Of a stretch of DNA of 64,000 nucleotides, positions 19,904-54,309 are shown in pieces. The translations under genes and the position numbers were made by a program. The DNA is taken from contig JAFZXK010000022.1 in the NCBI GenBank assembly GCA_017616785.1, positions 58,516 through 122,515 on the forward strand. The letters are read 5' to 3'. The stretch is from Alphaproteobacteria bacterium. GTDB taxonomy: Bacteria; Pseudomonadota; Alphaproteobacteria; Rs-D84. How positions within the stretch are numbered: position 1 is the stretch's first letter; each line of letters opens with the position of its first letter. Below the pieces are notes generated by a model. It did not search any database and had not been told where the DNA came from. It saw only the letters and a program-made list of their open reading frames with translations.

Positions 19904-20020
19904 GCGACACCCCGCCCTGCGGGCACCCCTCTAGCCAGAGGGGAATTTTTTTATGTTCTGTTGCGGGCCAAAATTCCCCTCTGGCTAGAGGGGTGGCGGG
20001 TGGAACCCGCCGGGGTGTCG
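19904..20020. repeat. Full-length A-type MITE-like palindromic element (117 bp)
   Basis: Left arm GCGACACCCCGCCCTGCGGGCACCCCTCTAGCCAGAGGGGAA, centre GTTCTGTTGCGG, right arm the inverted copy ending CCGGGGTGTCG. Confidence 0.8.
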
Positions 20021-27367: not shown

Positions 27368-28282
27368 TTATCTGACTTTTTCATAAATATATTTATTCAC
27401 AAATGTCTGTTCGCGTTTTTTGCGGTCGGCAATAACACCGTCAACCGAAGTTGTGCAGATATTTAATTCCGGGGCATCGTTTTCCTTGATAAATGGTTGG
27501 CGTGCCGCGGTCATTTCTTGTTGGGCGATTTGATAAAGGTTATCATATGTCTTTTTTGTTTGTGGCAAATTATCGAATTTTTCTACGATGTTTTTTAATG
27601 CGTTTGCAAATGCGGTAATCAGTTCGTCGTTCATATAATCTGCAAGTGGTTTGTTTTCAGAAATGTGATAATGGCGTTGTATATTTTTTATTGTTGTGTT
27701 TGGGAATAGCCATCCTGATAATTGTTTGTGAAAATCTGCAAAGTATTGTTGTTGCTTGGTTAAATGACCCAAAATTCCGTTCAGTTGTTTTTGATATTTT
27801 GAAACAGTGTCGCGTGTGGCGATGCGCGCAATTTGACGGGTATGTGCAAAAATTTGCCCAGGGTTTGGATTTGGTGTCAAAAAGTATTCTTGTTGGAATG
27901 TTGTATTATATTTTTTACCAATTTCTTTCATAATCGCCCATGCAGCATAGCGAGATATTTCCGCGTTCATGCTTTTGTCGGTAATTTCGATTACGTGCAT
28001 ATGATTATGCAAAAGTTCGAATTTTTGCGCGGGTAGCATATCGGTCGGGGCATATTTACGCAAAATATTTCCGATGGTGGAACTGCTTTGATATGTTTTG
28101 ATATCTAAATTTTTTATGGTGCCAAGGACAGTCGTCAACGACCAAAATTCGTGGGTGGTGGCGGTTATTTTTGTCCCTGGGATATCTGGCCATAAAGACA
28201 TTGCGATATAGTCACGTTTATTTTGACGCGCTGAATTTAGTGTTTCAAATATGTCTTGGTTTGGGATGATTGTGTTTTGCAT
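27368..28282 (-). CDS. DinD-like (DNA-damage-inducible protein D family) protein, low confidence
   Basis: Blocks AEISRYAAWAIMKEIG and DYMNDELITAFANALKNIVEKF parallel E. coli DinD LSRYACYLVVQNG and DHMGSTELAANLFRATQTEEKL as remembered. A/T-rich codon usage. Confidence 0.4.
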   Translation of the reverse strand: MQNTIIPNQDIFETLNSARQNKRDYIAMSLWPDIPGTKITATTHEFWSLTTVLGTIKNLDIKTYQSSSTIGNILRKYAPTDMLPAQKFELLHNHMHVIEITDKSMNAEISRYAAWAIMKEIGKKYNTTFQQEYFLTPNPNPGQIFAHTRQIARIATRDTVSKYQKQLNGILGHLTKQQQYFADFHKQLSGWLFPNTTIKNIQRHYHISENKPLADYMNDELITAFANALKNIVEKFDNLPQTKKTYDNLYQIAQQEMTAARQPFIKENDAPELNICTTSVDGVIADRKKREQTFVNKYIYEKVR

Positions 28283-39594: not shown

Positions 39595-39807
39595 TCCCCT
39601 TCGCGGGCGAAGGGGGGGACCGCGGGACGCGGTGGGGTAGTGGTGGCGACACCCCGTCCGCTTCGCGTTCACCCCTCTAGCCAGAGGGGAATTTGCGACA
39701 CCCCGCCCTGCGGGCACCCCTCTAGCCAGAGGGGAATTTAGGCCGCAACAGAACGCAATAAAGTTCTCCTCTGGCCAGAGGAGTACGGCGAAGCCGGGAG
39801 GTGTCGC
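39595..39807. repeat. Composite repeat cluster: B module, A half, then a full A-type element
   Basis: B at 39595-39643, A at 39645-39693, and A plus centre plus inverted arm (CTCCTCTGGCCAGAGGAG...GGAGGTGTCGC) at 39694-39807. Confidence 0.8.
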
Positions 39808-44945: not shown

Positions 44946-45030
44946 GGCCCTGTGGTGGAATTGGTAGACGCGCTTGACTCAAAATCAAGTTCCGCAAGGA
45001 GTGTCGGTTCAAGTCCGACCAGGGCCACCA
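44946..45030 (+). tRNA. tRNA-Leu (anticodon CAA), CCA encoded
   Basis: 7-bp acceptor stem GGCCCTG/CAGGGCC, anticodon loop CTCAAAA, long variable arm and T arm GTCGG-TTCAAGT-CCGAC. Confidence 0.9.
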
Positions 45031-45174: not shown

Positions 45175-45270
45175 CCAAATTTTGTTAGCCTGCGCCAAAA
45201 GCGCAGGCTTAAAAAATTTGAGTGTCGCGACGGAACGAAGTGTAGACGGGCGAAATCTCGGAAAATATTA

Positions 45271-45390
45271 CGACACCCCGTCCGCTTCGCGGCCACCCCT
45301 CTAGCCAGAGGGGAACTTTGTTGCGTTCTGTTGCAGGAGAAAATTCTCCTCTGGCCAGAGGAGTACGGTGTGAAACACCGGGAGGTGTCG
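45271..45390. repeat. Full-length A-type MITE-like element (120 bp)
   Basis: CGACACCCCG...CCCCTCTAGCCAGAGGGGAA, centre GTTCTGTTGCAGG, then CTCCTCTGGCCAGAGGAG...GGAGGTGTCG. Confidence 0.85.
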
Positions 45391-47193: not shown

Positions 47194-48981
47194 ATGAAGC
47201 AAGAAAACATACGAAATTTTTCAATTGTTGCACATATCGATCATGGAAAATCGACGCTGTCGGACCGGCTTATTGAAATGACGGGGGGATTGGAATCGCG
47301 CGAAATGAAGGCCCAGGTCTTGGATTCTATGGACATTGAACGCGAACGCGGAATTACGATAAAGGCGCAAACTGTGCGGTTGAACTATCGTGCGCGCGAT
47401 GGCCAAGTGTATCAGTTAAATTTGATGGATACGCCGGGGCATGTTGATTTTTCGTATGAAGTGTCGCGCAGTTTGGCCGCGTGCGAAGGTGCGCTGGTTT
47501 TGGTTGATGCGACCCAAGGCGTTCAGGCGCAGACACTGGCCAACGCGTATTTGGCGCTGGACAATGATTTGGAAATGTTGCCGGTTTTGAACAAGATTGA
47601 TTTGCCGTCCAGTGATGTTGATGCCGTACGTGCCCAGATTTCCGATGTTATCGGACTGGATGCGGCGGACGCGATTGCGGTTTCGGGTAAAACTGGGGCC
47701 GGGGTTGCGGAACTGTTGGAAGAAATTGTGCATAAATTACCGGCGCCACATGGTGATGAAAATGCGCCGACACGGGCGTTGTTGGTTGATTCTTGGTATG
47801 ATTCTTACCTTGGGGTTGTGGTGTTGGTGCGCGTGGTGGATGGGACTTTGCGTTTGGGGCAAAAGATAAAATTTATCGCGACCGGCGCGGAATATACGGT
47901 TGAAAAAATCGGTTACTTTACGCCGAAAATGGTAAATGTCGATTCGCTTTCCACCGGTGAAATTGGATTTATTATTACGGGGATGAAAACGATTCACGAT
48001 TGCAAGGTTGGCGATACAATTGCCGATGCGCGTGCGACCGTCGATGTGTTGCCGGGATTCAAACCGTCGGTACCGGTTGTGTTTTCTTCGTTCTTTCCGG
48101 TGGAATCCGATGATTATCCGACACTGCGCGAAAGTGCGGAAAAGTTGGCGTTGAATGATGCGTCGTTTGTGTTCACAACCGAAAAGTCATCGGCGTTGGG
48201 TTTTGGATTACGCTGTGGATTTTTGGGTTTGTTGCATATGGAAATCATTAGTGAAAGGTTGAATCGCGAATTTAACCTTAGTTTGATAAACACTGTGCCA
48301 AGTGTGCTGTATAAGGTTCATCTGCGTAATGGCGAAGTTTTGGACTTGGAAAATCCCGCCGATATGCCCGATATTACAAAGATTGAATATATCGAAGAAC
48401 CGTGGGTGCGGGCCACGATTATGATGCCTGATAAATACATGGGTGGAATAATGCAACTTTGTTCCGATAGGCGCGGTATTCAGGAAAATATATCATATGT
48501 CGGGAATCGTGCGGTGTTGACTTATCAATTGCCGTTGGCAGAGATTGTGTTCGATTTCTATGACCGTGTGAAATCGATTTCTTCGGGTTATGCGTCGTTT
48601 GATTATGTGGTTCAGGGATATCAGCAATCTGATTTGGTAAAGGTTTCGATTCTTGTTAACGAAGAAAATGTTGAACCGCTATCATTTATGTGCCACAGAA
48701 GTTCGGCGGAAAAACGGGGGCGGACGATTGTTGAAAAGTTAAAAGACCTTATTCCGCGACATCAATTCAAAATACCGCTTCAGGCGGCAATCGGTGGAAA
48801 AATTATCGCGCGTGAAACTATCGCGGCGTATCGCAAGGATGTTACGGCAAAATGCTATGGCGGCGATATCACGCGTAAAAGAAAACTTTTGGAGAAGCAG
48901 AAAGAGGGAAAAAAACGTATGCGGACATTTGGTAATGTCGAAATACCACAATCCGCATTTATAAATGCACTTAAAGTTTAA
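47194..48981 (+). CDS. lepA: Elongation factor 4 (LepA)
   Basis: [25 protein letters not shown] and C-terminal LepA domain; 595 aa. Confidence 0.95.
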
Positions 48982-48996: not shown

Positions 48997-49233
48997 ATGT
49001 TGATTGATATGAAATATAAATTACTGGAGATAAAAGATGACATCGGTGATTTATGGGTAATGATGGGTTTTTGGCATAGTGCCTGCGTGGATGTTAGAAA
49101 AAAACGTAGCGCCGCAAGAATAGCAAAGGCACATTGTGGCACAGATTATGAAATGGCGATGAAAAGATTAGATATTGCGAAGTCATGGCGACGTTCATAT
49201 TTACGTAGCCTTTTGGGACTAAAAAAGAAATAG
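48997..49233 (+). CDS. Small basic protein S1 (tandem paralog family)
   Basis: 78 aa; AHCGTDY...RRSYLRSLLGLKKK C-terminus. RBS AAGGAAAGAG, 15 nt after lepA. A/T-rich. Confidence 0.55.
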   Translation: MLIDMKYKLLEIKDDIGDLWVMMGFWHSACVDVRKKRSAARIAKAHCGTDYEMAMKRLDIAKSWRRSYLRSLLGLKKK

Positions 49234-49282
49234 GATGTTAGAGAATGTATGAATCAATAATTCTAACAAAAAGGAAAAGAAA

Positions 49283-49690
49283 ATGGCTATGTTTGTAAGC
49301 AAGAATAAAGAATCTAAGTGGCAAGAATTTTTGCGGTTATGTGCGGATATTAAGGAAAAACGTCGTGATATAAGGGCGACACGTCAGAAGATAACCGTGT
49401 TCTGCCAGAAAATGGATTATAATACGGAACGTCCAACGGGATGTTTTGTACGTTATAATACCGTTGCCTTTCCTTGGTGGACAGAATCACATCCGGCCAA
49501 AGATGTAGAATTTGTTTCCGTGTGTCCAAAAATTGGGGAATATGGTCTTTGTCATGGTGATGATGATGAATGTCCAATGTTTGCTGATTATGTGCATTAT
49601 TGTTGGGCTATGTCTGATTTGGAGCACCTAAAAGAAATGCGTCGAGATTCTTTGCGTGATTTGTTCAGAATTCAAAGAAAAGGTCGGTAA
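49283..49690 (+). CDS. Small Cys-containing protein S2 (tandem paralog family)
   Basis: 135 aa; LCHGDDDECPMFADY...RRDSLRDLFRIQRKGR. Confidence 0.55.
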   Translation: MAMFVSKNKESKWQEFLRLCADIKEKRRDIRATRQKITVFCQKMDYNTERPTGCFVRYNTVAFPWWTESHPAKDVEFVSVCPKIGEYGLCHGDDDECPMFADYVHYCWAMSDLEHLKEMRRDSLRDLFRIQRKGR

Positions 49691-49691
49691 T

Positions 49692-50075
49692 ATGTTTGAA
49701 AATTTGAATCAATATTTTTTGATAACTATGCAAATTTGGGTACAACGTCGTTTTGTGCGCAATATACGAAACAAAAAACTTGATAAATTTGAAATGATAG
49801 CGGCGGTACCGGTAAATCGTGATAGAAAAGCGGTGATTGACCAGGAAAAAAGGTCGCATTGTGTAATCATAGATTTGTGTTATGGCAAACCTGATGATAT
49901 ATGTTCAAAATATAAGGAAATGGAACACTGTGGTGATTCTCGGTGTGTGTGCGCGGATGCAAATAAAGCATACATAATGCAAAAACAAAAATTTGCCAAC
50001 GCAGAGAAAGAATATAATAGATTGTTGGAATCCAGGCGCGTTATACGGCGCAAATTGTGGACGCGTAACAAATAA
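49692..50075 (+). CDS. Small Cys-containing protein S3 (tandem paralog family)
   Basis: 127 aa from the ATG one nt after the S2 stop; EHCGDSRCVCADANKAY...RRVIRRKLWTRNK. Confidence 0.55.
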   Translation: MFENLNQYFLITMQIWVQRRFVRNIRNKKLDKFEMIAAVPVNRDRKAVIDQEKRSHCVIIDLCYGKPDDICSKYKEMEHCGDSRCVCADANKAYIMQKQKFANAEKEYNRLLESRRVIRRKLWTRNK

Positions 50076-50094
50076 TAAATAAAAGGCACGAAAG

Positions 50095-50409
50095 ATGTTT
50101 GATAACACATTAGTAGAGTTGCGAAACGCTTGGCGTGATTTGCGTTTGGCACGTCAAAAATATAAGGACGTAAGGCGGTGGGAAAATGCATGTGTCGTTA
50201 GCATGACTGTTGCTGTACCAGACAATTTATGTGGTGGTTGCCATTTGGTTGAAAAGCGCGAACTGTGTTCGTTGTATAACTCTTTCCAGAAGTGTGAAAA
50301 CCAAAAATGTGAAGCGCACGATTGGAATAATGCGTATGTTGAATTGCAGGTTGCCAAACATGCGCGCAATGACGCGATTCGTAATTTGTTTTGTATAAAG
50401 AGAAGATAA
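50095..50409 (+). CDS. Small Cys-containing protein S4 (tandem paralog family)
   Basis: 104 aa; CGGC-x17-CENQKC, then AYVELQVAKHARNDAIRNLFCIKRR. Confidence 0.55.
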   Translation: MFDNTLVELRNAWRDLRLARQKYKDVRRWENACVVSMTVAVPDNLCGGCHLVEKRELCSLYNSFQKCENQKCEAHDWNNAYVELQVAKHARNDAIRNLFCIKRR

Positions 50410-50431
50410 TAAAGGAGCAAAAGGAGCGGAG

Positions 50432-51436
50432 ATGGCGCATCAATTCTTTTTTAATCCGTATATTTTGGATAACCTTAATGCGCCATCGCGGGGCTTTGAT
50501 GTTGTCCAAGATATTTCGGAACCGCGACTTCGTTTGTATATAACAAGTCGTGGCGTTAAAACATTCTTTGTGCGCAAGCGTATAAATGGTCGTGATCGTC
50601 GTATCCTTATTGGCAAATATCCAGACATGGATATTGAAGAAGCACGTAGCGCAGTTGCAAGTGTATTAGATGACGCATCAAAAAAAGTTTCGATAAAGCG
50701 CAAGAAAATTTCGTTTTCTGATTTCGTTCAACTTTATTTGAAAAATCGTGTGCATCGGTCCGTTGGGTCGTATGATAAATTGGTGCGTTCGATAAATATG
50801 CATCTAAGGCCATTGTTTGATAAAAATGTTTCGGATATAACCGTGGATGATATTCGTGAAACAATTGGTGGTATTCGGGGAACGGCGATTGCCGCGCGAA
50901 TGCAAGAACTGTTGCAAAGTATTTTTCGCTATGCGATGGAAACTGGGTATGTGTTATCGAATCCGGTTGCGGCTTTGCCACGGCAAAAACAGAATAGGCG
51001 CGTGCGACCGTTAAACAAATACGGCCTTAATCGATTGATTGAATCGATAAAGAATTATCCAGATGCCACGATGAGTGCGGCGTTTTTAATGCTGATTTAC
51101 GGGTTCGCGACAAAGAATCAGGTCTTTTCTATGCAGTGGGAAGATTTGGACTTTAATCGCGATATGTGGGGTGAACGGCCGCTTTCGGATAGGGCGGTTG
51201 TGTTGTTGCAAGATTTGCCCCAGGATGGATACTGGGTTTTCCCGGGACGTGGGCATGGGCATTTGACCGATCCGCGGGTTGCGTGGGAACGCGTTATTAC
51301 CGATGCCGAAATCCCGGATTTAACAATGGACGATGTTTATAAATTTATCTCGCGGCGGTTGAACTGGGCGGGGGACAAGGAAGATTTGCGCAATAATATG
51401 AACGAATTACTGGATGATTTGTTCGATATTGAATAA
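50432..51436 (+). CDS. Tyrosine-recombinase (P4-type integrase)-like protein, apparently catalytically degenerate
   Basis: N-terminus RLRLYITSRGVKTFFVRKRINGRDRRILIGKYPDMDIEEAR is typical of the integrase arm-binding domain. Expected TGxR, HxxR and C-terminal Tyr positions read GFATK, MDDVYK and absent in my manual alignment. Confidence 0.6.
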   Translation: MAHQFFFNPYILDNLNAPSRGFDVVQDISEPRLRLYITSRGVKTFFVRKRINGRDRRILIGKYPDMDIEEARSAVASVLDDASKKVSIKRKKISFSDFVQLYLKNRVHRSVGSYDKLVRSINMHLRPLFDKNVSDITVDDIRETIGGIRGTAIAARMQELLQSIFRYAMETGYVLSNPVAALPRQKQNRRVRPLNKYGLNRLIESIKNYPDATMSAAFLMLIYGFATKNQVFSMQWEDLDFNRDMWGERPLSDRAVVLLQDLPQDGYWVFPGRGHGHLTDPRVAWERVITDAEIPDLTMDDVYKFISRRLNWAGDKEDLRNNMNELLDDLFDIE

Positions 51437-51552
51437 TGGGCCGTTTTGTTAGGATTTGTTATAATTTCTTGACACAGGGGGCCGAAAGTGATAGTTTTAT
51501 GGCATATGTCGTTTTAGGTGACAAAAGGTTTAACAAAAATAAAGGATGAAAA

Positions 51553-51795
51553 ATGTCAACTTTTGAAAAAGTAAAAAAAATTGTCGCAGATAAATTGGGC
51601 GTGGATGAAGCCAAGGTTACCGAAGCCGCCGCGTTCGTGAACGATTTGGGTGCGGATTCTTTGGACGTTGTCGAATTCGTGATGGAGGTTGAAAAGGAAT
51701 TCGATATCACGATTCCTGATGAAGAAGCGGCAAAGTTGGTTACCGTTGGTGATGCGGTAAAGTATATTGATGCGCATGCCAAAAAGGCCGCATAG
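51553..51795 (+). CDS. acpP: Acyl carrier protein
   Basis: [20 protein letters not shown] phosphopantetheine-attachment motif. Confidence 0.95.
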
Positions 51796-51915
51796 AAAGT
51801 TTTGGTTCTGTGTTTTATCCGTCATGCAAATGCGTGGCGGATTTTTTTCTGTATTTTTTGCGGAAAACGTATTACTATTACGGCGTAATTTAACTTTATC
51901 AAAAGGAATTATGAT

Positions 51916-53166
51916 ATGAAAAGGGTTGTTATTACGGGTATGGGCATTGTGTCGCCGGTTGGTTGCGGTATTGAACATGCGTGGAAAAACATTGTGGCCG
52001 GGCGTTCCGGCGTTCGCAAGATTGAAGATTTCGATGCTTCTGAATTGGCGTGTCAAATTGCGGGCGTGCCGGTGCGTGGGAACGAACCTGGGATGTTTAA
52101 TCCGGACACTGTGGTTGAACCTCGCGACCAACGAAAGATGGATAAATGTATTTTATATGCGGTTGTTGCCGCGGACGAAGCGGTTCGCGACGCGGGCCTG
52201 GATACATATACCGGCGATAAAGACCGCGTCGGCGTTTCGATTGGCAGTGGTATCGGCGGTTTGAACACAATCTATGAAAATTGTATCGAATTGGCGAACA
52301 GTGGACCGCGCCACATCAGTCCGTTCTTTATCCCAAAGTGCATTATCAATATGGCGGCGGGTCATGTTTCGATTAAATACGGTTTGCGTGGCCCGAATGT
52401 TGCGATGGTGACGGCGTGCGCGACCGGTGCGCACAGTATCGGCGAAGGTGCGCGCCTTATTCAACATGGCGATGCGGACATTATGGTTTGTGGCGGGTCC
52501 GAAGGCGCGGTTGGTAAAATCGGTGTTGCGGGATTTTCGGCGATGAAGGCATTAAGTACGCGTAACGATGATCCGGAACATGCGTCGCGTCCGTGGGATA
52601 AAGACAGGGACGGCTTCGTTATGTCCGAAGGCGCGGGTGTTTTGGTTTTGGAAGAATATGAACATGCGGTCGCGCGTGGTGCAAAAATTTATGCCGAGGT
52701 CGCGGGTTACGGCCTGTCCGGGGACGCATATCATATAACTGCGCCGGCCGAAGGTGGCGAAGGTGGCGCGCGTGCTATGATGGCGGCGTTGAATGATGCG
52801 GGGTTAAAGCCGGCGGATGTTGACTATATCAATGCGCATGGAACGTCAACAGGTCTTGGCGATATTGGTGAATTGACGGCGGTAAAGAAATTGTTTGGTG
52901 ATACGGGTGCGTGTATGTCTTCGACCAAGTCCATGACCGGGCACTTACTGGGTGCCGCCGGCGCGGTAGAGGCGATATTCTGTACACTGGCCATTCGCGA
53001 TGGAATTGTGCCGCCGACAATCAATTTGGATAATCCGATTGATGAGGTTGGCGACTTTGATTTGGTGCCGAACAAGGCAAAGAAACGCAAGGTCGATGTC
53101 GCACTGTCCAATTCATTTGGCTTCGGCGGAACAAATGCATCATTGGTGTTAAAGAAAGTGAATTAG
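51916..53166 (+). CDS. fabF: 3-oxoacyl-ACP synthase II
   Basis: KAS II: active-site context ACATGAHSIG, HGTSTGLGD and GHLLGAAG. Confidence 0.93.
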   Translation: MKRVVITGMGIVSPVGCGIEHAWKNIVAGRSGVRKIEDFDASELACQIAGVPVRGNEPGMFNPDTVVEPRDQRKMDKCILYAVVAADEAVRDAGLDTYTGDKDRVGVSIGSGIGGLNTIYENCIELANSGPRHISPFFIPKCIINMAAGHVSIKYGLRGPNVAMVTACATGAHSIGEGARLIQHGDADIMVCGGSEGAVGKIGVAGFSAMKALSTRNDDPEHASRPWDKDRDGFVMSEGAGVLVLEEYEHAVARGAKIYAEVAGYGLSGDAYHITAPAEGGEGGARAMMAALNDAGLKPADVDYINAHGTSTGLGDIGELTAVKKLFGDTGACMSSTKSMTGHLLGAAGAVEAIFCTLAIRDGIVPPTINLDNPIDEVGDFDLVPNKAKKRKVDVALSNSFGFGGTNASLVLKKVN

Positions 53167-53220: not shown

Positions 53221-53245
53221 CGGGCGCGAACGCGCCCGTTTTTTT
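53221..53245 (+). terminator. Intrinsic terminator after fabF
   Basis: CGGGCGCGAACGCGCCCG followed by T7, preceded by a TAGTG-rich spacer. Confidence 0.8.
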
Positions 53246-53368
53246 GCGACACCCCGTCCGCTTTCGCTTCGCTACAGCGAGACACCCCTCTAGCCAGATG
53301 GGAACTTGATTCCAGAGTACGAAGTTCTCCTCTGGCCAGAGGAGTACGGCGAAGCCGGGAGGTGTCGC
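53246..53368. repeat. Full-length A-type MITE-like element (123 bp)
   Basis: GCGACACCCCGTCCGC...CCCCTCTAGCCAGATGGGAA ... CTCCTCTGGCCAGAGGAG...GGAGGTGTCGC. Confidence 0.85.
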
Positions 53369-53618: not shown

Positions 53619-53933
53619 ATGAAGCGATATATTTTATTATTTTTAATTCTCTTTATTCCGCAAATTGTGTGGGCGGATGATGCCGGTGTTACGGATGCAG
53701 ATATGCAACGCGCAATGCAGATTTCAAAACTAAAACGCGAAATATCGGAATTGGAAATCCAGCTTGCCGAATGCAAAAGAAAAAATAAAAACTGGAAAAC
53801 GGCGACATGGATTGGTGCGGCGGGAACGGTTGCAACCGGAACCGCGGCGATAGTGCAGGGCGTGAAACTAAATAACCTGAAAAAAGAAAAAGCAAATAAC
53901 AAACCAACCGAAGGTGCAAAAGATGAAAAGTAA
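53619..53933 (+). CDS. Cassette protein A2
   Basis: Very similar to A1 over 104 aa. Confidence 0.7.
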   Translation: MKRYILLFLILFIPQIVWADDAGVTDADMQRAMQISKLKREISELEIQLAECKRKNKNWKTATWIGAAGTVATGTAAIVQGVKLNNLKKEKANNKPTEGAKDEK

Positions 53934-54309
53934 AATTCTTTTGTTGGTCGGAATGTTTGCGGCGTTTTCCGCGTATGGCGAAACGGATTATATTGATATG
54001 CAAATTCATGAATTGGAAGTGCGGCGCGATGAATTAAAAAAACAAATTGCGGAATGTGAACAAAACACGCGCGGTTACAAAATTGCGGGAATTGCGACGC
54101 TTGGTGCGACCGGTGTCGGTGTTGTTGGAAATATCGCACTGCATAACGAAATAAAAAAAATCGAACAGTCCAAATCGGGTGGTGGATATAGCGGTGCAGG
54201 AAGTGGTGGTATGAAAGTTGATACACTATCACAAGAACAACGTGATGAATCGTCGTGCAGAGAGTTTGAAAAACTTGGAATTGAATTGCCGGAAGAATGT
54301 AAAAAATAA
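53923..54309 (+). CDS. Cassette protein B2 (conserved N-terminal part, unrelated acidic tail)
   Basis: MKSKILLLVGMFAAFSAYGETDYIDMQIHELE... is near-identical to B1 up to GGGYSG and unrelated afterwards. ATG at 53923 preferred over GTG at 53914. Confidence 0.7.
   Translation: MKSKILLLVGMFAAFSAYGETDYIDMQIHELEVRRDELKKQIAECEQNTRGYKIAGIATLGATGVGVVGNIALHNEIKKIEQSKSGGGYSGAGSGGMKVDTLSQEQRDESSCREFEKLGIELPEECKK

Follow-up and report, generated by a model that had tools for sequence, protein, structure and literature searches.

In a 64,000-nt stretch of an alphaproteobacterial contig (JAFZXK010000022.1, positions 58,516 to 122,515 of the forward strand, assembly GCA_017616785.1; hereafter the window), whose host is a Candidatus Enterousia-like member of the order Rs-D84 with genomes <1 Mb, five genes lie between lepA and acpP: four for small proteins (S1 to S4) and one for an integrase homologue, which we term INT. 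Judged from alignments and profile searches, INT descends from a P4/IntS-type tyrosine integrase and has lost all six catalytic residues, and as such can neither cut nor rejoin DNA, nor catalyse recombination. Every related genome sampled from Candidatus Enterousia carries it as a gene passed on vertically, and strong purifying selection acts on each of its three domains. We regard it as very probable that INT is a domesticated integrase. The best explanation overall, which we hold with moderate confidence, is that the dead protein serves as a sequence-specific DNA-binding factor whose site may be the acpP-fabF promoter and whose optional partners would be the small proteins. A preliminary description of this DNA, made from its letters alone, had proposed a domesticated recombinase that acts as a DNA-binding factor with zinc-binding partners; that proposal fits the loss of catalysis across the family, the strong selection, the fixed synteny and the four invariant Cys of the small proteins, with DNA binding, zinc binding and partnership as its inferred parts.

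The Pfam scan of INT identified the domains Arm-DNA-bind_3 (PF13356/DUF4102, 2.2e-8) and Phage_int_M (PF22022, 4.1e-7), both above the curated cut-offs, as well as Phage_int_SAM_3 (9.4e-5), and gave no match to the catalytic domain PF00589, on which the active HK620 IntS scores 7e-40 with the same Pfam library. The PHROG integrase family phrog_1 aligns to residues 29-298 of INT at 6e-29, and the nearest phage proteins are IntS/DUF4102-type integrases (~26% identity over residues 33-273). The approximate boundaries of the domains are residues 32-89 for the arm-binding, 95-182 for the core-binding and 195-334 for the degenerate catalytic-like domain. These matches agree with the preliminary description, which had recognised an integrase N-terminus with arm- and core-binding regions. 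When the product of the gene at 50432 is set against the PF00589 and DUF4102 profiles, the arm domain is matched, PF00589 is not, and all six catalytic positions are lost. Those positions, read by alignment with HK620 IntS and the integrase of Erwinia phage Midgardsormr38, appear in INT as follows:

Arg-I: T227, inside GFATK
Hairpin Lys: W246, in a region 12 residues shorter
His-II: D301
Arg-II: K304, inside LTMDDVYKF, a conservative Lys
His-III and Tyr: both gone through a second 12-residue deletion

T227 also lies opposite Arg212 of lambda Int in a separate profile alignment, so two independent alignments agree on Arg-I. The last 30 residues of INT contain no Tyr, and the states of the catalytic positions are invariant or nearly so throughout the family. 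The reading of box I as GFATK, the deletion of the Lys hairpin region and the end of the protein before the catalytic Tyr had all been noted from the sequence and hold. The HxxR motif had been read as MDDVYK; both His and Arg are indeed lost, and the corrected reading is D301..K304, with the conservative Lys at Arg-II. The AlphaFold2 model of INT has a predicted local distance difference test (pLDDT) value of 72.5, with residues 231-278 poorly modelled. Its best Foldseek match is lambda Int (5.7e-6), and the P4-like arm-binding structures 3jtz and 3rmp align with its N-terminal part at a template modelling (TM) score of 0.79. INT therefore has the recombinase fold with a core-binding domain and the N-terminal arm-binding domain of the P4/IntS type, and lacks the R-K-H-R-H/W-Y catalytic set of tyrosine recombinases. 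We also observed that residues 1-31 (50432-50524), with the pattern MAHQFFFNPYILDNL..P..GFDVVQD, are almost invariant across the INT family and contain an insertion of ~15 residues relative to IntS-type arm-binding domains; this is a lineage-specific addition.

Using one genome per GTDB species, we found INT relatives in 267 species-representative genomes; their names are Candidatus Enterousia or unclassified Alphaproteobacteria, with rumen and gut as the source. INT has matches to more than 1,000 proteins in the databases. The best 120 matches come from uncultured Alphaproteobacteria, are 65-98% identical and measure 332-337 aa, except for one gene call of 386 aa. In the IMG/VR viral contigs the family is absent, apart from a single match of 22% identity. 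Compared with close relatives, the ratio of non-synonymous to synonymous divergence (dN/dS) is ~0.07 for INT and 0.035 for lepA; within INT it is 0.06 for the arm-binding, 0.15 for the core-binding and 0.06 for the dead catalytic-like domain. The low value of the degenerate catalytic domain indicates that this domain still has a role protected by selection. Enterousia, of the order Rs-D84, have genomes of 0.75-1.0 Mb without pseudogene build-up (PMC12306168), and since INT is found in every sampled genome of a lineage that sheds genes, an important role is very probable. Current annotations of INT-type proteins read "integrase family protein", "integrase arm-type DNA-binding domain-containing protein" or "hypothetical protein", and we found no description of this INT/small-protein family in the literature.

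In the window, INT belongs to the following unit:

47194..48981, + strand: lepA (EF4), open reading frame, with Pfam domains found in its orthologues; upstream anchor of the conserved unit
48997..49233, + strand: S1, open reading frame of 78 aa; short derivative of the small-protein family
49283..49690, + strand: S2, 135 aa; full family member, subfamily B
49692..50075, + strand: S3, 127 aa from ATG; full family member, subfamily C
50095..50409, + strand: S4, 104 aa; full family member, subfamily C
50432..51436, + strand: INT, 334 aa; P4/IntS-type integrase homologue, catalytically dead
51553..51795, + strand: acpP; downstream anchor of the unit
51817-51842: terminator-like hairpin after acpP
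51916-53166: fabF, downstream of the acpP hairpin

The order lepA-[0-5 small genes]-INT-acpP was conserved in 84/84 other loci that carry both lepA and INT, with a lepA-INT gap of 27-2292 nt and an INT-acpP spacer of 117-178 nt. Metagenome contigs share the order lepA-INT-acpP, even in a locus with rearranged rbfA. As previously described, the five open reading frames are tightly packed behind lepA: 15 nt separate the lepA stop from S1, the intergenic gaps in the array are only 1-49 nt, and our terminator scan of the window found no terminator-like site from lepA to acpP, the first being that at 51817-51842. A purine-rich ribosome-binding site precedes every gene of the unit. The A/T-rich character of the block was likewise confirmed (36-41% G+C in the S block, 42-49% in lepA). 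lepA and the block are probably co-transcribed. The 127-aa ATG reading of S3 begins with MF.., as do its orthologues.

The small proteins were gathered from genomic context; a word-based homology search recovered only 4 and 9 relatives. Small open reading frames in the lepA-INT gap number 0 (6 loci), 1 (47 loci), 2 (15), 3 (12), 4 (4, the window included) or 5 (1). Iterated profile searches seeded with S2 or S3 converge, recruiting 121 of the 130 unique gap open reading frames and 0 of 650 shuffled decoys, and the final profile identifies S2, S3 and S4 with E-values of 1e-25, 2e-13 and 1e-15. By these profiles the three are members of one orphan family, previously unnamed. Among 1.84 billion representative proteins, searched exhaustively, there are 236 members, nearly all of 115-145 aa, and each member whose context was examined sits immediately upstream of INT. 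The family plan comprises an N-terminal helix, a four-Cys knot, a conserved N..Y and a C-terminal helix with a hydrophobic-basic end; the typical Cys spacing is C-x(26-45)-C-x8-C-x4-C. In S2 numbering, C54 and C97 never vary, and C81 and C90 are at least 90% conserved, among 108 sequences with a mean column identity of 16%. The family sequences thus possess four Cys residues as predicted zinc ligands, with the exception of S1 and certain other short forms. The proteins are basic (pI 8.5-9.9). We also noted that the last three Cys of S2-S4 (e.g. 49523-49573), spaced C-x8-C-x4/6-C, weakly recall CCCH zinc fingers; the likeness is not significant (PDB 2d9m, E 0.69; one member against zf-CCCH_DUS3L, 0.004), and it is the only recurring hint on the Cys knot.

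The family profile does not recruit S1, which has only 2 Cys, lacks the central Cys knot and retains the N-terminal part along with the basic helix at the C-terminus. A phmmer comparison with an S2-type protein gives 6.7e-6, and a profile of S1-like short forms aligned with the family profile by hhalign gives E 5e-5 over 30 columns, covering the C-terminal helix only, which implies that this helix is the one module common to the family and the S1-like forms. Orthologues of S1 are L013_1 (45% identity, dN/dS ~0.24 with saturated dS) and L025_1. Taken together, the alignments class S1 as a short derivative whose common part with the family is limited to the C-terminal helix. Of the four paralogues originally proposed, three are therefore full members, and the fourth is a truncated derivative. 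Other Cys-less or fused forms exist. Longer array genes were observed in L013 (5455-5988), L011 (5455-5982), L024 (260 and 369 aa), L018 (254 aa) and L081 (219 aa). In at least L013_4 and L011_3 the Cys4 module is followed by a Cys-less helical module with the same C-terminal motif, so these look like fusions of neighbouring paralogues, and in the representative search family members of 208-294 aa carry two matched stretches.

In the same genomes the mean column identity is 16% for the small-protein family vs 78% for INT, and dN is 0.5-0.7 vs 0.05-0.08; the amino-acid sequences of the small proteins change ~10 times faster than that of INT. Their pairwise dN/dS values are all <1 (0.15-0.57 alongside these dN values, 0.15-0.67 overall; dS is near saturation and the ratios are rough). 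Clustering into subfamilies gives the window array as G78-B135-C127-C104. B, C, D is the recurrent order in the window's clade, A-type genes occur in a more distant clade, and the S3 orthologues in L010-L013 are found with E-values of about 1e-28 to 1e-30. All paralogue pairs within a genome are <=38% identical, so the arrays reflect retention and loss of old paralogues, and recent tandem amplification is ruled out.

Searches for relatives of the small proteins outside the family gave little. Pfam, PHROGs, NCBIfam and PADLOC scans of S1-S4 produced noise only, the Pfam scan of all 108 family members yielded no consistent match, and the family profile found nothing below E 0.2 among PDB sequences. 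Foldseek matched the S2 model only to generic antiparallel coiled coils (E >0.8), and the model is too weak for use. A scan of viral contigs with the small-protein alignment gave no result, there being no stretch conserved enough to search with. The suggestion that the small proteins are recombination directionality factors (RDFs) or resemble excisionases (Xis) has to be dropped: hhalign of the family against HK620 Xis gives a probability of 0.1%, i.e. no relationship.

The candidate target of INT lies in the spacer between INT and acpP. In an alignment of 80 unique INT-acpP spacers from 80 species the core is near-invariant, reading TTTGTTAT-nn-TTTGTTATAATT(T/C)CTTGACA and, after a further 17 nt, TAGTTT with TGA in front of it, and it is so even though synonymous sites are close to saturation. 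More distant contigs also keep the element. In the window it consists of:

51445-51474, + strand: direct repeats with a 10-bp period; the core begins 8 nt past the INT stop codon
51445-51452, + strand: repeat unit TTTGTTAG
51455-51462, + strand: repeat unit TTTGTTAT
51465-51472, + strand: degenerate third unit TTTCTTGA, overlapping TTGACA
51469-51474, + strand: conserved TTGACA at the end of the repeat array
51489-51497, + strand: conserved TGATAGTTT, which contains TAGTTT, 17 nt after TTGACA

The exact 8-mer is present as the proximal unit in 77 of the 80 spacers and as the distal unit in 50. The tandem pair was found in non-coding DNA of the window at this site only; those at 28087 and 57402 fall within coding sequence and were set aside. 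By its sequence and spacing, TAGTTT in TGATAGTTT is a probable extended -10 element of the acpP-fabF promoter; it matches TATAAT at 3/6 positions and was missed by a generic promoter scan. The repeats at 51445-51474 are candidate arm-type-like binding sites. Integrases of this class bind arm-type sites arranged as tandem direct repeats beside their gene. In phage lambda the P' arm sites lie just past the 3' end of int, and in HK620 the annotated attP has, a short way before int, GGGTAAAAT repeats whose period is 11 bp. We consider the repeats the potential target of INT because their layout matches that of tandem arm-type sites next to their own integrase gene.

Several further features of these spacers were noted. 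An 18-mer, TTTGTTATAATT(T/C)GTTAT, is found in a second conserved spacer in a more distant clade (L004 11517-11534, - strand; L067 1593-1610, + strand; also L044, L045, L047, L051, L055, L060 and L084). In L004 it adjoins a terminator-like hairpin, lies ~200 nt upstream of a gene for a 261-aa protein without a Pfam match, and is inverted with respect to this gene. The recurrence of the motif suggests an operator that serves more than one site. Also in the more distant clade (L089 5468-5506; L043, L063, L070 and L082), the repeats are bracketed by the inverted repeat TGTCAAG ... CTTGACA, the right arm of which is the -35 hexamer; the left arm TGTCAAG is absent in the window's clade. The 5' leader of acpP (~51500-51530) contains, between the putative -10 and the ribosome-binding site, a conserved near-palindrome with the consensus ATGACGGTCAT in the 80 spacers, degenerate in the window, which might fold as a leader hairpin or act as a second operator.

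On the favoured explanation, INT would be a non-catalytic, sequence-specific DNA-binding or architectural protein, and its most likely target would be the pair or triplet of 10-bp-phased TTTGTTAT repeats that abut and partly overlap the -35 of acpP-fabF. Bound there, INT would tune the transcription of this fatty-acid synthesis operon. Docking of the small proteins, by way of the C-terminal helix they have in common, would modulate INT; they would be optional and would probably bind zinc. This specific mechanism at the acpP-fabF promoter we put forward tentatively. A further extension, in which the integrase and its arm-type sites were exapted together as a promoter-control module of acpP-fabF in a minimal-genome lineage, with Cys4 helical-hairpin proteins under birth-and-death evolution as interchangeable co-factors comparable (and unrelated) to directionality factors, is more speculative still, and we consider it doubtful.

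A number of points weigh against this explanation. The link from INT to TTTGTTAT is drawn from position, and the site would fit a UP element or another operator too. Both the repeats and the arm-binding domain of INT are almost invariant, so no covariation signal is obtainable. In some genomes the same 18-mer is present in one other intergenic region, so that any binding of the motif by INT would extend beyond acpP. Zinc binding by the small proteins and any contact of theirs with INT are putative; in the poor S2 model (pLDDT 61) two long helices, 2-43 and 100-134, are predicted and the Cys region is unmodelled. INT also stands without any small gene in six loci, and for that reason the small proteins are dispensable for INT.

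It is possible that INT is a domesticated DNA-binding or architectural protein with a job unrelated to acpP, for instance in the nucleoid, in segregation or as a replication/repair scaffold, and that the repeats are a UP element or another operator. All the evidence for domestication serves such a role equally, the repeats at -40 to -57 occupy the typical position of UP elements, the motif is found in another spacer as well, and INT forms an operon-like run with lepA, not with the lipid genes. On the other hand, exact 8-mers with a 10-bp period right after the INT stop codon fit the arm-type layout better than a generic A/T-rich UP element, and the adjacency of INT and acpP is unbroken in all loci examined.

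The fast evolution of the small proteins, their 0-5 copies, the persistence of old divergent paralogues and the lower G+C content of the block would also accord with a conflict or defence module, in which the small proteins are engaged in an arms race with phages, mobile elements or a host and the dead integrase is a decoy or sensor that binds att or arm DNA when P4-like elements invade. We consider this unlikely: the PADLOC scan of the five proteins gave no significant match (the best was S3 against PD-T4-10_B, E 0.015), a near-invariant INT is not expected of an arms-race partner, the pairwise dN/dS values of the small proteins stay below 1, the block has a fixed place within a housekeeping operon, and no nuclease or other effector domain is present. 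Slightly less probable again is that the small proteins are basic Cys4 RNA-binding proteins that act in translation or ribosome biogenesis with rbfA-lepA, the adjacency of INT being incidental. Their genes do follow lepA directly with no terminator between, they are basic, and their Cys spacing of C-x8-C-x4/5-C weakly resembles CCCH RNA-binding fingers; however, those similarities are not significant, translation factors normally neither evolve so fast nor are lost to zero copies, and every member of examined context abuts INT, even where rbfA is rearranged. The preliminary description's other reading was a decayed integrative element, in which case INT would be a leftover much like a pseudogene. 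Such decay can appeal to the lost catalytic residues and low G+C content and is hardly credible, as simple decay is refuted by the conservation data: the constant length of INT bar the one 386-aa gene call, its relatives in 267 species representatives, the same slot without att sites, its near absence from viral contigs, its dN/dS of 0.07 (0.06 in the dead domain), and the strongly reduced host genomes without pseudogene accumulation (PMC12306168).

Comparison with known systems places the favoured explanation, INT as a domesticated DNA-binding factor, in context. With P4/IntS-type integrases, such as HK620 IntS and the integrase of the Yersinia high-pathogenicity island (HPI), INT shares the order of arm-binding domain, core-binding domain and catalytic fold, and the tandem direct repeats beside the gene. 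Unlike them, it has two 12-aa deletions and a 15-aa insertion after MAHQFFFNPYILDNL, and it lacks att sites, a mobile context and a tRNA target, being inherited vertically in one chromosomal slot. Excisionases and RDFs, e.g. the TorI-like Xis of HK620, resemble the small proteins in being small, basic and encoded directly upstream of int in the same orientation, whereas for the small proteins the prediction is two long helices and a Cys4 knot in place of the winged helix of Xis, and they occur in 0-5 divergent copies. An integron likewise has a tyrosine-recombinase homologue beside a variable number of small genes. In contrast, INT is dead by its sequence, lies downstream of the array and is co-oriented with it; the gaps of 1-49 nt leave no room for attC, and the array genes all belong to one family of old paralogues. 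An active IntI, attI and attC are lacking at the INT locus, and integron-like cassettes are ruled out by the short gaps and the single gene family.

There are few bacterial cases in which recombinases of mobile elements have turned into host proteins, and the best-studied one, MrpR, is still phage-borne. MrpR (YopR), the master repressor of the Bacillus subtilis prophage SPbeta, has the tyrosine-recombinase fold, has lost recombinase function and is a sequence-specific DNA-binding repressor of repeated sites (PMC10516654). It provides a functional precedent for the mechanism proposed for INT, which shares with it a recombinase fold and the loss of catalytic residues. MrpR is encoded by a phage, retains the Lys and Tyr and lacks an arm-binding domain, whereas INT is chromosomal in a cellular lineage, possesses an arm-binding domain and has lost every catalytic residue; the likeness is one of fold and lost recombination. 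Recombinase-fold proteins exapted for DNA binding are thus a known kind, among which INT is notable as a chromosomal gene in every related genome sampled, with all catalytic residues lost and tied to an undescribed small-protein family. The locus also defines this orphan, fast-evolving Cys4 family, linked to INT wherever its context was examined. It offers a concrete candidate target on the DNA, beside an operon central to lipid synthesis, and its function, once worked out, would reveal how a recombination module can be rewired into host regulation and would add to the very sparse biology of the uncultured Enterousia/Rs-D84 gut symbionts.

The surroundings of the unit agree with the earlier view that no tRNA or convincing attachment (att) repeat flanks the block. 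The Rfam scan of the window identified two tRNAs and nothing more; these, the nearest tRNAs, at 44946 and 56842, are several kb away and do not abut the block. Neither att borders, nor a tRNA or other target, nor the patchy spread of an integrative element were found, the slot being filled in 84/84 loci. Repeats of ~100 nt at 45268-45368 and 53244-53349 were considered as attL/attR of an 8-kb segment and rejected, since they are copies of a dispersed palindromic element. This intergenic element, with the core CCTCTGGCCAGAGG, has 11 matches at 6 places in the window vs 0 expected; further places are ~8003, 19928-19991, 26192 and 39674-39781. The two composite ~100-nt copies bracket 8 kb, from the tRNA-Leu side to just past the fabF terminator, and the element looks like a repetitive extragenic palindrome or a miniature inverted-repeat transposable element (REP/MITE-like), not att sites. 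Downstream of fabF, at 53619-54309, there are two overlapping small open reading frames of 104 and 131 aa, whose products have hydrophobic, signal-like N-termini and coiled-coil-like bodies rich in Lys and Glu.

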